This document shows positions 815 through 39,352 of a stretch of DNA of 44,737 bases, piece by piece (positions within the stretch are counted from its first letter, which is position 1; each line of letters starts with the position of its first letter). The position numbers and the translations under genes were made by a program. Under the pieces are notes generated by a model. It saw only the letters and a program-made list of their open reading frames with translations, was not told where the DNA came from and did not search any database. The stretch is from Candidatus Nanohalarchaeota archaeon QJJ-9 (GTDB lineage Archaea; Nanohalarchaeota; Nanosalinia; Nanosalinales; Nanoanaerosalinaceae): NCBI GenBank assembly GCA_022865275.1, contig JALIDQ010000002.1, positions 1-44,737 on the forward strand, in the 5' to 3' direction.

Positions 815-1579
815 TTACTGTACACCCAGCAGTTTCCTGAATATAAAGGTGAATGGGAACTGGAAAAGTATATAGAAACCAAGCCATTCAAAGCTACTTC
901 CTGCAAGAGGGAGGCTTACAGGAAGCTGTAGGAACTCTAGAGCGAGCTTTACCTCTGCCTTAGACTCATCTTCTGTAACGCTTATGTCCCTTACCTGCCA
1001 ACGCATATCTTCGAGCTTTATCTCCTCGCTTGTATTGTAGGTCTGGTTGTTATGGACCAATACGTAGCTGCTGTTTCCTTTTCTCTCCACTTCAAGCTCT
1101 TCAAGGTTGTATCGCCCGTCCATCATCGTAAAGTTGCCTTTAAAGCCATTATCTGCCTGCGGAAGGCCTACAACAGGAACAAATGTATGGAGAATATAAG
1201 GAATGATAAGGAAGAACACGAACATAGAAGCTATCATAGGCTTGAACATAGATTTGAACATCTCTTTCTGCAGTTTCATGTTCTCGCTCATATACTTGTT
1301 TGCTTTGTCCATCTCTCCCTCACTTCTAGCCTCCTTCATATCGTTCTGAAGCTCTTTTTGCTTATCTTTTATCTCTTGGTGCCTTTCTTGGTCCATTAGT
1401 AGAAGATAAAGCACGGATATAATCGCCGCGATTATTATAGAAATCAGACCTACGGTTACCTGCGCAGATGTAAGATTTACTCCTATAGTAGAGAAAACAA
1501 TACTAAATATTGCGTCTATTACGGGAAAAGCGGGCTCTACAACCCCCATAAAAAGTCCGAAAAGGAAAGGATAGCTCAT
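815..1579 (-). CDS. DUF106 / EMC3-TMCO1 (Oxa1 superfamily) membrane protein
   Basis: TM helix, then a cytoplasmic coiled coil (QERHQEIKDKQKELQ), MFKPM motif, second TM and C-terminal WLGFYIL...RKLLG. Lies downstream of secY as usual in archaea. Confidence 0.85.
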   Translation of the reverse strand: MSYPFLFGLFMGVVEPAFPVIDAIFSIVFSTIGVNLTSAQVTVGLISIIIAAIISVLYLLLMDQERHQEIKDKQKELQNDMKEARSEGEMDKANKYMSENMKLQKEMFKSMFKPMIASMFVFFLIIPYILHTFVPVVGLPQADNGFKGNFTMMDGRYNLEELEVERKGNSSYVLVHNNQTYNTSEEIKLEDMRWQVRDISVTEDESKAEVKLALEFLQLPVSLPLAGSSFEWLGFYILFQFPFTFIFRKLLGVQ

Positions 1580-4552: not shown

Positions 4553-5062
4553 TTATCCCTCTATCTCAGATTTTACTTCTTCAAAGTTTTCGGTAATACC
4601 ATTGTTCTTAAACTCTTCTATGTGTTCTCCTCTACACCTTTCCTCGCTTGGAAATGCTTTACCATCAGCATTTATGTCCATACCAGCGTCAACAAGACCC
4701 TTTATAGCTGAATAAATCCTCGAGCCATGGTGGTTGTTTTGGAGTCCTATATCCACGACCGCTTCGTCCAGACCTTCTTCAAGAGCTCTTTTACCTGCTA
4801 AAAACCCGGTAAGGTACGCTGCGGGGAGATTGCCTGTATGGTGCTCCCATCCGAACTCTTCCAGGTCGCCTGAAAAAGCGGAGGCCTGAGTTTTATCATC
4901 TTTTCTATTGTATAAAACTAGCTGTACTCTCATATGGTTGTTGCTCTCTCTTACTACAGCTCTGGGCTTACCTGACTTCAAAAGCTCTAGTCTTTTTTTG
5001 TAATCAGTCTTCTTTTCTCTTCTTCTCCTGTGTGGCACCTTGTACTGTGGTCCTTTTGCCAT
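4553..5062 (-). CDS. rpl18: 50S ribosomal protein uL18
   Basis: GPQYKVPHRRRREKKTDYKKRL, NLPAAYLTG. Confidence 0.97.
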   Translation of the reverse strand: MAKGPQYKVPHRRRREKKTDYKKRLELLKSGKPRAVVRESNNHMRVQLVLYNRKDDKTQASAFSGDLEEFGWEHHTGNLPAAYLTGFLAGKRALEEGLDEAVVDIGLQNNHHGSRIYSAIKGLVDAGMDINADGKAFPSEERCRGEHIEEFKNNGITENFEEVKSEIEG

Positions 5063-5063
5063 T

Positions 5064-5510
5064 TTACTCGCCTCTTATCTTTTTATCGATATAGATTTTC
5101 ATATGTTTCTTGTTTCGGAAGAATCCTCCCTTGGCCATGTTGTAAAGCTTGCGGTATTCGCTGCTGCTAAGCTCTCCTTCGTCACGCATCTCTTTCAGCT
5201 CTTCTCTCAACGAACGGATTTTTTCCTTCCATTCGTCCTTGTCGGACTTCCTTCCTCCTTTTGCTCCTTTCCTGCTTCCATGTCCTTTCTTTCTTCCTTT
5301 AGACTTCTGCTTCCGTTCTTTACGGGTCCTTCCTCGACTGTTACCTTCTTTATCCTTTTTCTGTATAGTTCCCCCTTCTATAAGGTTGCGTATATCCTGC
5401 TTGGTTATAGCATCGGCTACTTCGTCTACTTCTTCGGGATCGATCCATACTCGGTTCTCTCCCACGCCTAGTATCTCCGAAGCCATCCTTTTCTGTGAGC
5501 TTACATCCAT
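5064..5510 (-). CDS. rpl19e: 50S ribosomal protein eL19
   Basis: QKRMASEILGVGENRVWIDP, GHGSRKG, YRKLYNMAKGGFF. Confidence 0.97.
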   Translation of the reverse strand: MDVSSQKRMASEILGVGENRVWIDPEEVDEVADAITKQDIRNLIEGGTIQKKDKEGNSRGRTRKERKQKSKGRKKGHGSRKGAKGGRKSDKDEWKEKIRSLREELKEMRDEGELSSSEYRKLYNMAKGGFFRNKKHMKIYIDKKIRGE

Positions 5511-5518
5511 ACTATCAC

Positions 5519-5689
5519 CTAATGATTCCTAAACTCTACTTTCTCCCCTTTCTGGAGCACCATGTAGTTGTTGAATACGGTGGAGCAGTTTGGACATACT
5601 TTACCTTCCTCATCGCTCATATTCTCTCCGAACTCTCCACAGTTGGGGCATTTCCCTTCTCCTGGTTTGTAAAAAGACGCTCCTGTCAT
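5519..5689 (-). CDS. Small CPxCG-type zinc-finger protein (56 aa), not in the ORF track
   Basis: Manual translation: MTGASFYKPGEGKCPNCGEFGENMSDEEGKVCPNCSTVFNNYMVLQKGEKVEFRNH*. Two CxxC knuckles; SD-like GGAGATGA upstream; fills the eL32-eL19 gap on the operon strand. Confidence 0.85.
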   Translation of the reverse strand: MTGASFYKPGEGKCPNCGEFGENMSDEEGKVCPNCSTVFNNYMVLQKGEKVEFRNH

Positions 5690-5704
5690 TGTATCATCTC
5701 CTTT

Positions 5705-6040
5705 TTACCTATTCAACACTTTTATATCCAGCTCATCCGCTTTTTCCAGCATTTCTTCCTTCTTTCTTCCTCCGACTGTTGAGCCGATTCTTGCCGCTTC
5801 TTTCTCAGGGTCGAGTTTCTTCAAATCCTCGGTGTTATGGACTAGCACGTCCTCGTAACCTGAGGGATGAGTTCCGCGTTCATCCTTCGGCTTTCTGTAG
5901 CCAGGGTTAGGCATGTCCTTTGCATATTTCTTCTTCAGCCTTACGTTGCTATGCCTGCCGCGAGGCTTTCTCCAGGAATTGTCTAAACGGTTGAACTTGT
6001 GCGAATTCTGTCTTGTAAACTCTTTATCATCCGACATCAC
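5705..6040 (-). CDS. rpl32e: 50S ribosomal protein eL32
   Basis: FTRQNSHKFNRL...WRKPRG, RGTHPSG; the start may be the ATG at 6037. Confidence 0.96.
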   Translation of the reverse strand: MMSDDKEFTRQNSHKFNRLDNSWRKPRGRHSNVRLKKKYAKDMPNPGYRKPKDERGTHPSGYEDVLVHNTEDLKKLDPEKEAARIGSTVGGRKKEEMLEKADELDIKVLNR

Positions 6041-6561
6041 TTATCACCTTTGCTTGTAATATATACTCCATCCTGGAATTTTCTTAGGTCTCTTGAGCCC
6101 TTGTAACAGGCCTGTTCGATGTTTGCAGCGGTCTGAGATACTTTCTCTTTGTTTGGACCGGACACGGTTATTTCGTCCTCGCTTACCTGCACGTTTACTC
6201 CTTCCAGTATATCGACCTTTCTTGGTGCCCGCTCCCCTATGAAGTTCTGTATAACGACTTGGTTGCCTTCAACTTTGACTGACATAGGGAAGTGCGCGTA
6301 TAGCGCTTTAAGCTTGTATTCATACTCTTCTTCAAGGCCTTCAAACATGTTTTCGACGTGTGATTTGTAGGTACCGATCACCGCTCTATCGTCACGCTTT
6401 GAAGACTCTGTATGGATTATTACTTGACCTCCATCAACTCTAACATCTACTTCCGGATATCCGAACTCTTTTTCTACTTCCTCATCTCCCGCACTAGCTC
6501 TAATCATATCTTCTTCTTTTTCCACTTCTATGTTCTCAGGTATCTCTACTTTTTCTTCCAT
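6037..6561 (-). CDS. rpl6: 50S ribosomal protein uL6
   Basis: YAHFPM, NFIGER, QTAANIEQ, RDLRKFQDGVYI. Confidence 0.97.
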   Translation of the reverse strand: MEEKVEIPENIEVEKEEDMIRASAGDEEVEKEFGYPEVDVRVDGGQVIIHTESSKRDDRAVIGTYKSHVENMFEGLEEEYEYKLKALYAHFPMSVKVEGNQVVIQNFIGERAPRKVDILEGVNVQVSEDEITVSGPNKEKVSQTAANIEQACYKGSRDLRKFQDGVYITSKGDK

Positions 6562-9619: not shown

Positions 9620-9919
9620 TCACCTTTCTTTTACATAACCCCACTTAGGAGGCAACCTTTTACTTATTCTCTCTTCCGGTTTTCCTTCCAACAGTTTCCC
9701 GTTGACCTTAACTTTTTTATCCCCAAGGTAAAACCGGAAGACTGATTCTTCCTTGGGTATCTTAGCTCTACTATCCTTCCTGCCTATTATTAATATTCCT
9801 TCAGTCTCATCGACTACTTTACCCTCTATACCTTCCTTTTCAGGGTCGCTGGACTCCACTACTTCTGTCTTGAGCCCTATGAGTTCGTGCCTCGGAAGGT
9901 TTTCAGGTTCCCTGGGCAT
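9620..9919 (-). CDS. rnp1: Ribonuclease P protein component 1 (Rpp29/Pop4)
   Basis: HELIGL, GIEGKVVDET, IPK, GKPEER; canonical position before uS17. Confidence 0.94.
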   Translation of the reverse strand: MPREPENLPRHELIGLKTEVVESSDPEKEGIEGKVVDETEGILIIGRKDSRAKIPKEESVFRFYLGDKKVKVNGKLLEGKPEERISKRLPPKWGYVKER

Positions 9920-9952
9920 CAATACATCCTTTAAACGGAACCTTTTTAATCA

Positions 9953-10261
9953 CTAGTGAACCTCGATCGAATCTTCTTCGAATCCCAGCTCGCTCAGCAC
10001 ATCCTTTATCCGGCGGGTATGGTCTCCCTGCAGTTCTATTTTGCCTTCCTTTGAGGTTCCCCCGCATGCGAGCTTTGACTTGAGCTTTGACTCGAGGCTC
10101 CCTATATCGACGTCCTCATCGTCAAGCCCCTCGATTACGGTCATGACTTTTCCTAGGCTTCGGTCGGAAGTCCTTACTTCAATCTTCTGCTCTTCCCTTG
10201 CTATGTCCTTGCAGACACAGATGTCCTTGGGCAAGCCGCAGTTAGGACAGTTTTCTGTCAT
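9953..10261 (-). CDS. sui1: Translation initiation factor aIF1 (SUI1)
   Basis: [24 protein letters not shown]. Confidence 0.96.
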
Positions 10262-17107: not shown

Positions 17108-17257
17108 CGCCGGGAGTGGGATTTGAACCCACGCAGGCTGTAACGCCCACCAGCTATTTGTTGCGAAAACCATAAATTTTCTTCACTGCATTCTCTTGTA
17201 AAACTCCGAATGCAGTGGTCTCCAAGCTGGCGCTCTACCAGACTAAGCGACCCCGGC
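17108..17257 (-). tRNA. tRNA-Ser(GGA) with a 64-nt intron at 37/38 (intron 17156-17219)
   Basis: Acceptor GCCGGGG/TCCCGGC with G73; anticodon stem CCAGC/GCTGG, loop TT-GGA-G|A; long variable arm; T arm GTGGG-TTCAAAT-CCCAC. Confidence 0.92.
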
Positions 17258-31292: not shown

Positions 31293-31453
31293 TGCGCTGG
31301 CCGGGATTTGAACCCGGGTCGCCGGCTATTTTCTCTCATGCCCCTCGGAGCGGAAGTGATATTCAGAGCGGTTCACTTTGAACCGGTCATTGCGTCCTCA
31401 GAGCGTAACCTGAGTCGGGAAGCCGGAGTCTTACCGAGCTGGACCACCAGCGC
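31293..31453 (-). tRNA. tRNA-Gly(CCC) with an 88-nt intron at 37/38 (intron 31328-31415)
   Basis: Acceptor GCGCTGG/CCAGCGC with A73; anticodon stem CCGGC/GCCGG, loop TT-CCC-G|A; T arm CCGGG-TTCAAAT-CCCGG. Confidence 0.9.
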
Positions 31454-39232: not shown

Positions 39233-39269
39233 TTTAGATGTTTTTTATAAATTGCCCGACTTTTAAAAG

Positions 39270-39352
<83 letters not shown>

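Follow-up and report, generated by a model that had tools for sequence, protein, structure and literature searches.

The window analysed here is a 44,737-nt stretch of DNA from Candidatus Nanohalarchaeota archaeon QJJ-9 (contig JALIDQ010000002.1 of assembly GCA_022865275.1), with a typical archaeal spc operon on its minus strand, in which the genes for uL6 (6037..6561), eL32 (5705..6040; PF01655, 136 bits), eL19 (5064..5510; PF25476, 103.5 bits, and PF01280, 88.8 bits) and uL18 (4553..5062) were confirmed with Pfam. Between eL32 and eL19, and on the same strand, the ORF list contains the gene for a 56-aa C4 zinc-ribbon protein, ZR56 (5519..5689; start ATG 5689..5687, stop TAG 5521..5519), with the translation MTGASFYKPGEGKCPNCGEFGENMSDEEGKVCPNCSTVFNNYMVLQKGEKVEFRNH. 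The protein has two knuckles, CPNCG and CPNCS, separated by 13 residues, with the two CPNC motifs standing 14 residues apart. The eL32 stop codon TAA (5705-5707) is followed by a 15-nt spacer (5690-5704) and a Shine-Dalgarno-like GGAGATGA (5694..5701, minus strand) that lies 4 nt upstream of the ZR56 start, the same spacing as that of the AGGTGAT-type motifs before uL15, eL19, eL32, uL6, eS4 and uS17 in this operon. At its other end, the ZR56 stop codon (5519-5521) shares bases with the AGGTGA Shine-Dalgarno motif of eL19 (5515..5520, minus strand), which is placed 4 nt ahead of the eL19 ATG. The original prediction, made from the sequence alone, had described a 56-aa CPNCG-x13-CPNCS ORF in the spc operon between eL32 and eL19, with its start 15 nt past the eL32 stop behind an SD-like motif and its stop overlapping the eL19 SD; all of these features were found as described.

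The same r-protein superoperon also carries, on the minus strand and matched by Pfam, genes for RNase P subunit p29 (Rpp29; window 9620-9922), SUI1/aIF1 with an N-terminal CPNCG...CVC knuckle (window 9953-10261) and an EMC3/TMCO1-like membrane protein, an EMC3-like insertase (window 815-1579), as well as SecY; operon position alone thus does not make ZR56 an r-protein. The exact ZR56 protein stands in a protein collection and in the ESM Atlas, so it had already been predicted by at least one gene caller. A sequencing-run look-up found the window stretch in four DNA runs of one hypersaline-lake study and returned no RNA runs carrying the ZR56 locus. Elsewhere in the window, Rfam tRNA matches at 17108-17257 and 31293-31453 (both minus strand) were not called by ARAGORN and, with lengths of 150 and 161 nt, probably represent tRNA genes with introns, while a tRNA-Leu called by ARAGORN at 39269-39352 is missing from the Rfam gathering list.

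Conservation of ZR in Nanohaloarchaeota and Aenigmatarchaeota

A six-frame search of 41 related genomes gave full-length matches to ZR56 in 20 (E 2e-7 to 1e-20), and in 19 other genomes the position between eL32 and eL19 is taken by a full-length homologue of 33-63% identity. Nei-Gojobori dN/dS values were 0.04-0.20 in seven of the nine pairs tried, the remaining two being left out for saturated dS. Furthermore, in 12 of the 20 Nanohaloarchaeota loci the eL32 stop codon and the ZR start codon overlap or are no more than 5 nt apart, an arrangement typical of translational coupling. ZR56 is a true protein-coding gene under purifying selection.

We surveyed 70 Nanohaloarchaeota genomes, 20 of them outside the Nanosalinaceae (families f1, f2, f4 and f5) and 50 within (f3, which includes 'Candidatus Nanosalina sp. 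J07AB43'); the window belongs to f1, a genome of which carries the label 'Candidatus Asbonarchaeaceae'. ZR was present in every genome of f1 (10) and f4 (8) and in the one genome each that represents f2 and f5, with profile E-values of 1.3e-23 or lower and the gene order uL6-eL32-ZR-eL19-uL18 in every one (20/20). The ORF and its position, on whose conservation in relatives the original prediction had staked itself, are therefore kept throughout these families, and in part of the Aenigmatarchaeota as well (see below). No ZR homologue was found in the 50 Nanosalinaceae genomes, where profile matches were no better than 1e-5, and a six-frame search of 21 of them gave weak knuckle-level matches only (E >= 1.8e-4). 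The weak profile matches (E ~1e-5) turned out to be S27ae-like ORFs beside eS24- and Kae1-like genes at the four loci read. eL32 abuts eL19 in all 17 Nanosalinaceae loci examined. Among Nanohaloarchaeota this family is the one known best, and cultivated members of the phylum are not known from any other. Across 76 other archaeal eL32/eL19 loci (Thermoplasmata, Methanobacteria and others) the gap was at most 56 nt in 67, in line with the earlier statement that the two genes are normally adjacent in archaea, and the nine longer gaps were non-coding or filled by the eL32 tail and lacked a zinc-ribbon ORF.

When 1.84 billion representative proteins were searched with the ZR profile, 93 matched at E <= 1e-3, 18 of them at E <= 1e-10. 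About 20 of the matches were full-length (54-67 aa), and the twilight zone contained 48-70-aa proteins of the same architecture. Two twilight subtypes were traced to MAGs mostly labelled Aenigmatarchaeota, and both showed the order uL6-eL32-ZR-eL19-uL18 (4/4 and 7/7 loci). In hhalign comparisons with the Nanohaloarchaeota ZR alignment, subtype C reached a probability of 98.9% (columns 5-58, full length) and subtype D one of 97.9% (columns 12-50), compared to 29.5% for three Nanohaloarchaeota eS27 sequences. On the strength of this profile-profile similarity and of their common position behind eL32, the Nanohaloarchaeota and Aenigmatarchaeota forms (subtypes A-D) are assigned to one ZR family. 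With a profile built from 54 members, a ZR match (E <= 1e-5), nearly always single, was found in 143 of 251 sampled Aenigmatarchaeota genomes and none in the other 108; eL19 was detected in 245 of the 251. The family thus reaches beyond halophiles and is widespread in Aenigmatarchaeota. Among DPANN phyla, the genome survey covered Nanohaloarchaeota and Aenigmatarchaeota. A contig scan with two N-extended subtype-A representatives found knuckles only in long open frames, aminoacyl-tRNA-synthetase-like by eye, with no eL32 or eL19 nearby.

In the 31 loci read from both phyla (20 + 4 + 7), ZR had eL32 as its upstream neighbour in 31/31, with an extra ORF intervening in two (L007 and L009), and eL19 as its downstream neighbour in the same 31/31. 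Among 96 Aenigmatarchaeota genomes in which the places of both genes were listed, ZR lay immediately upstream of eL19 in 51 (gaps of 8-204 nt), and in the other 45 the two were far apart or on separate contigs. Reading 20 of these split-operon genomes (loci L157-L176) showed that uL6-eL32-ZR stands apart from eL19 in 18 and that eL32 is directly upstream of ZR in 17, in the order RpoA''-uL6-eL32-ZR; RpoA'' (Rpb1 domain 5) was Pfam-matched upstream of uL6 in five of the six loci scanned. In the remaining three loci, a 275-aa ORF with no Pfam match separates eL32 from ZR (L162:2686-3513, minus strand), eL32 lies 2 kb from ZR on the opposite strand (L171), or no eL32 occurs within the fetched 3.9 kb, a stretch that reaches the contig end (L159). 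As ZR stays with eL32 through the break in the operon, it is eL32 rather than eL19 that is the steadier neighbour of ZR and to which the data point as a functional companion. However, the split-operon genomes read all carry one ZR subtype, ending W-[NTSA], and may descend from a single rearrangement, so that one or two independent breaks may account for this persistence.

We also sampled 20 Aenigmatarchaeota genomes that have eL19 and no ZR match. Here eL32 abuts eL19 in eight, a Lys/Glu-rich eL32 tail fills the gap in six, uS3 lies in the gap in three, and no eL32 was present within 1.5 kb in three. Together with the absence of ZR from Nanosalinaceae, these loci reveal that ZR is dispensable and has been lost repeatedly. 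A comparison of 49 eL32 sequences from ZR-positive and 92 from ZR-negative genomes, in which start codons were chosen crudely, found no residue or indel that tracks the presence of ZR (criterion: a column at least 80% conserved in the former and at most 15% in the latter).

Several loci showed unusual arrangements of their own. In genus g4 (genomes G003 and G006), the ORF inserted between eL32 and ZR (L007:1125-1469, plus strand, and the matching stretch of L009) encodes 114 aa with an N-terminal CxxC...HxxC and no Pfam match at E <= 0.001. The uS3 gene between eL32 and eL19 at the ZR-less locus L177 (870-1529; Ribosomal_S3_C and KH_2, Pfam-confirmed), and likewise at L178 and L179, represents an unusual relocation. 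The Lys/Glu-rich C-terminal eL32 extensions that run up to eL19 in six ZR-negative Aenigmatarchaeota (L181-L184, L186 and L190) are long, and similar tails occur in L128, L136 and L142. RpoA'' of L168 (30-1445) and L173 (169-1539) begins with a segment that resembles an intein (Intein_splicing cut-off 35.8 bits; scores of 28.8 and 39.4 bits, respectively). Finally, the eL19 match of genome G027 (L017:1651-2060) is split between different frames, with overlapping parts that cover residues 1-79 and 77-146, which suggests a frameshift or an assembly error.

Sequence motifs and predicted structure

The 20 Nanohaloarchaeota proteins can be aligned end to end, with nine invariant residues: K13, C14, P15, C17, G18, C32, C35, F39 and G48. 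The first knuckle, C14-P-N-C17 (5639..5650, minus strand), belongs to a family motif K-C-P-x-C-G, of which C14, P15 and C17 are invariant in the alignment of all 54 members; the second, C32-P-N-C35 (5585..5596, minus strand), is followed by a T-x-F-N-x-Y-[MIV]-[VI]-L strand, and P33, N40 and Y42 are at least 90% conserved among the 20 sequences. All four cysteines are invariant in the 54 sequences, which is the pattern of a generic C4 zinc ribbon, a class marked by paired CxxC knuckles on beta-hairpins with some 10-20 residues between them, and on these grounds ZR is a predicted metal binder. The loop between the knuckles is variable, and both termini carry short conserved motifs. The N-terminal segment is conserved and aromatic (FF[RK]), and the C-terminal tail, F-R-N-H in ZR56 (5522..5533, minus strand), follows a family pattern of hydrophobic-x-N-N. 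The last two residues are Asn-Asn in 34 of 54 members, and a terminal Glu occurs in one; in the Aenigmatarchaeota subtype D, the penultimate residue is Trp with at least 90% conservation and the ending is W-[NTSA].

With a median pI of 5.1 and a median net charge of -2 over the 54 members, ZR proteins are mildly acidic to neutral, and this extends to the non-halophilic Aenigmatarchaeota members. An AlphaFold2 model made with the 54 sequences (pLDDT 74, pTM 0.54) has a compact core at residues 11-50 with short strands around both knuckles and a strand at residues 44-46, and confidence is lower at the ends (block means of 52 for the first ~10 and 60 for the last ~6 residues); a model made from the 20 sequences reached a pLDDT of only 52.8. 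Foldseek with the 54-sequence model gave no match in the PDB at E <= 0.001, the best being TFS4/RpoM at E 0.35, and the top VIA-align score among 48,161 chains was Z 3.8, to Rieske/rubredoxin-like knuckles, with no specific fold relative. A search for longer proteins containing ZR yielded three, all generic multi-ribbon proteins, which is weak evidence against fused forms. Taken together, such a layout is more in keeping with a docking or adaptor protein than with a basic one embedded in rRNA.

Possible roles of ZR

The original prediction had put forward a lineage-specific r-protein, an assembly factor or a Zn-responsive regulator as candidate roles. Our tentative choice, which we hold with rather less than even confidence and which draws on gene context, is that ZR serves the large ribosomal subunit, or its assembly, as a lineage-specific accessory protein produced along with eL32. 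In such a scheme, ZR is a single C4 zinc ribbon of ~55 residues, aromatic over a short stretch at the N-terminus and with a flexible C-terminal tail that usually ends Asn-Asn. Its reading frame would follow directly on that of eL32 in the polycistronic spc mRNA, the stop codon of the one often touching the start codon of the other, and ZR would thereby be made with and in step with large-subunit proteins; from the operon structure we infer that ZR is co-expressed with r-proteins. The protein might then act as a peripheral component of the large subunit or as an assembly helper working with eL32, and it would dock via its conserved N- and C-terminal motifs and not via the basic RNA-binding surfaces of core r-proteins. 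A complex prediction for eL32 (30-row alignment) and ZR (54-row alignment), run without controls, scored 0.00 against a mark of 0.32 and speaks neither for nor against binding. Several observations count against a large-subunit role: the acidity of ZR, whereas core rRNA-binding r-proteins are basic; its dispensability; the non-r-protein genes in the same superoperon; the possible descent of the split-operon genomes from one rearrangement; the lack of any eL32 residue or indel that tracks it; and the loci in which the eL32-ZR adjacency is broken (genus g4, L162 and L171) or no eL32 was present in the stretch read (L159).

Some of these observations speak for a different reading, namely that ZR is a non-ribosomal passenger, a zinc-ribbon adaptor that would use the growth-coupled expression of the superoperon and act elsewhere, for example on an RNA-processing, translation-factor or protein-targeting component. 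The operon demonstrably holds such genes (RNase_P p29, SUI1 and EMC3_TMCO1), the family is acidic to neutral and has been lost repeatedly, and its conserved short terminal motifs are typical of docking peptides. Rpp29, aIF1/SUI1, SecY and the EMC3/DUF106-like protein resemble ZR in being embedded in the r-protein operon of this window, but they belong to known families with known partners, and ZR has neither. Against a passenger role, the spot directly behind eL32 is kept across two phyla and through a break in the operon, and no second conserved neighbour or fused domain hints at another pathway. We regard a passenger role as the main rival, somewhat less likely than a large-subunit role.

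ZR could also be a regulator of the operon that binds the spc mRNA or senses zinc and tunes translation of eL19 and the genes downstream. In the window, and in several relatives too, the ZR stop and the eL19 SD share bases (TAGGTGA), and metal status could in principle be read out by the four Cys ligands. However, ZR is conserved in the 45 of 96 Aenigmatarchaeota genomes where eL19 does not follow it, so that a regulatory or zinc-sensing role fits poorly; an acidic-to-neutral protein is a poor fit to mRNA binding, no result points to zinc sensing, and the apparent lack of a pattern of zinc-free paralogues, known from zinc-regulated r-proteins of bacteria, likewise counts against it. Regulation by ZR is thus improbable.

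Relation to known proteins and to archaeal phylogeny

That ZR56 is a very divergent or relocated version of a known zinc-ribbon protein (eS27, eS31, eL43, eL40, eL37, RpoP, Spt4, Nop10 or LysW) is very improbable. Such a relationship could be read from profile matches to PDB sequences, which are confined to the knuckles (RpoM 1.3e-5, LysW 6.6e-4, eS31 7.9e-4, eL43 8.3e-4 and eS27 1.6e-3), and from the nearest ESM Atlas clusters, which are auto-named 'S27 domain-containing' and viral proteins (score 0.93, with only 122 shared features). However, no Pfam or NCBIfam model reached its cut-off with ZR56, consistent with the original prediction, which had been unable to match it to a known r-protein. 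The best Pfam match was DUF7573 (PF24458; 20.0 bits, E 6.5e-4, cut-off 30.2), MJ0042_CXXC scored 16.8 bits against a cut-off of 20.9, and eS31/S27ae (PRK00432) scored 9.3 bits (E 1.1) against a cut-off of 54 bits. eS27 (PF01667, cut-off 24.5 bits) was not among the best 25 of 37 weakly matching families, all at 20 bits or below, and neither Trm112 nor rubredoxin was among the Pfam matches listed for ZR56 or for the 54 members. Across these 54 members, the recurring matches were to generic Zn_ribbon models only, and weak.

The known ribbons also coexist with ZR, which is consequently not a displaced eS27, eS31, eL37, eL40, eL43, RpoP or Spt4. Bona fide eS27 scored above cut-off in all nine other f1 genomes and in 65 of 70 genomes of the order, so ZR is not the sole eS27-like gene, and the profile-profile score of 29.5% given above sets the two apart; eS27 is missing from the window's own assembly (G000), which is 88% complete. 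The same genome holds candidates for eS31 (a separate S27ae-like ORF at G000 C4:1355-1537), Spt4, TFS, eL40, Rpp21, uS14, aIF2-beta, RpoP, eL43 and eL37 (all identified by eye). Comparison with eS27, eL37, eL40, eL43, RpoP and Spt4, as originally suggested, thus left ZR distinct from each of them, with eS27 present in sister genomes and candidates for the others in the same genome. The archaeal zinc-ribbon r-proteins eS27, eS31/S27ae, eL43/L37ae, eL40 and eL37 are, like ZR, small (~50-90 aa) single C4 ribbons encoded among translation genes; they differ in being separate genes that coexist with ZR, which is acidic to neutral and has its own N-terminal FF[RK] and C-terminal NN. A search for eL33 (PF01247) as a complementary r-protein gave matches in 0/70 genomes, with the control genomes silent as well. 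NCBI names exist for three ZR homologues, each 'hypothetical protein', and the names 'rubrerythrin' and 'TiaS', which two JGI homologues had received automatically, are taken to be knuckle-level mislabels.

LysW acts via the C-terminal Glu of its EDWGE motif and sits in amino-acid biosynthesis clusters. Like ZR, LysW/ArgW (PDB 5k2m chain E) is an acidic zinc ribbon of ~54 aa with a conserved flexible C-terminal tail, but the profile match of ZR to 5k2m_E (E 6.6e-4) covers the knuckles only and reflects architectural resemblance, not membership. ZR sits behind eL32, lacks an acidic EDWGE-type tail and ends in NN, NH or W-x in place of the terminal Glu of LysW. Haloarchaeal zinc-finger micro-proteins, including DUF7573, share with ZR the character of CPxCG-type micro-proteins; DUF7573 is, however, not among the 25 families matched by most of the 54 members, and ZR is mostly non-halophilic (Aenigmatarchaeota). 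Lastly, the view of ZR56 as a chance ORF or annotation artefact, to which its length of only 56 aa and an initial search of a clustered protein collection that returned ZR56 itself alone might have lent weight, has a negligible probability and is refuted by conservation (homologues in 20/20 related genomes and 143/251 Aenigmatarchaeota, nine invariant columns in the 20-sequence alignment), by purifying selection (dN/dS 0.04-0.20) and by the proper SD in front.

Lineage-specific archaeal r-proteins have been found by experiment, aS21 among them, and the genes for L45-L47 and aS21 are not known to lie inside the spc operon, unlike ZR. All are small, taxonomically restricted and left 'hypothetical' by annotation pipelines, as is ZR, but they were identified in purified ribosomes, whereas ZR is a predicted protein. 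For L45-L47, this identification is described in PMC6393860. Our literature search found no title or abstract that mentions such a gene. A family with these terminal motifs, fixed in position behind eL32 and spread over two phyla, therefore appears undescribed, while in fold it belongs to an ordinary class.

Few parts of an archaeal genome are as conserved and as well annotated as the spc operon, and even there two DPANN phyla have a gene, strongly constrained by purifying selection, that lacks a family name. The translation machinery of these ultra-small symbionts has, to our knowledge, never been studied biochemically, and ZR, if ribosome-bound, would add a lineage-specific component to their ribosomes. 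The family merits a profile model, so that gene callers neither miss the gene nor label it 'hypothetical'. Whatever its function, the presence or absence of ZR is a simple synteny marker, as it occurs in Aenigmatarchaeota and the early-branching Nanohaloarchaeota families and not in Nanosalinaceae. Most probably, the common ancestor of Aenigmatarchaeota and the non-Nanosalinaceae Nanohaloarchaeota already possessed the family, which was then lost several times. A sisterhood of Nanohaloarchaea and Aenigmarchaea has been proposed from indels in a preprint (bioRxiv 10.64898/2026.06.17.729505) whose main text does not contain the terms eL32, eL19, L32e, L19e or zinc. The distribution of ZR agrees with the sisterhood as put forward there, and ZR could add a rare-genomic-change marker for the two phyla. 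A fuller proposal, which as a whole we consider speculative and unlikely, is that ZR is an unrecognised, zinc-binding, acidic archaeal large-subunit protein situated at or next to eL32, that it arose in the Aenigmatarchaeota-Nanohaloarchaeota ancestor and was lost repeatedly, for example in Nanosalinaceae, that its hydrophobic-x-Asn-Asn tail would act as a docking peptide, with its partner located on the ribosome or away from it, and that its insertion would be a rare genomic change backing the sisterhood.

Two further micro-protein ORFs were observed. In genome G001 (contig C3), a 51-aa ORF (L062:1478-1633, minus strand; profile E 2.6e-4) contains CPDCDAEFNNY, which resembles the second ZR knuckle and the residues after it, and this ORF, which has small acidic ORFs for neighbours and lies at a distance from the spc operon, may be a distant ZR paralogue. 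The window's own assembly contains, on contig C25 (715-882, plus strand), a 55-aa ORF with four CxxC motifs, another zinc-finger micro-protein, which presumably resembles the HVO_2753 type.
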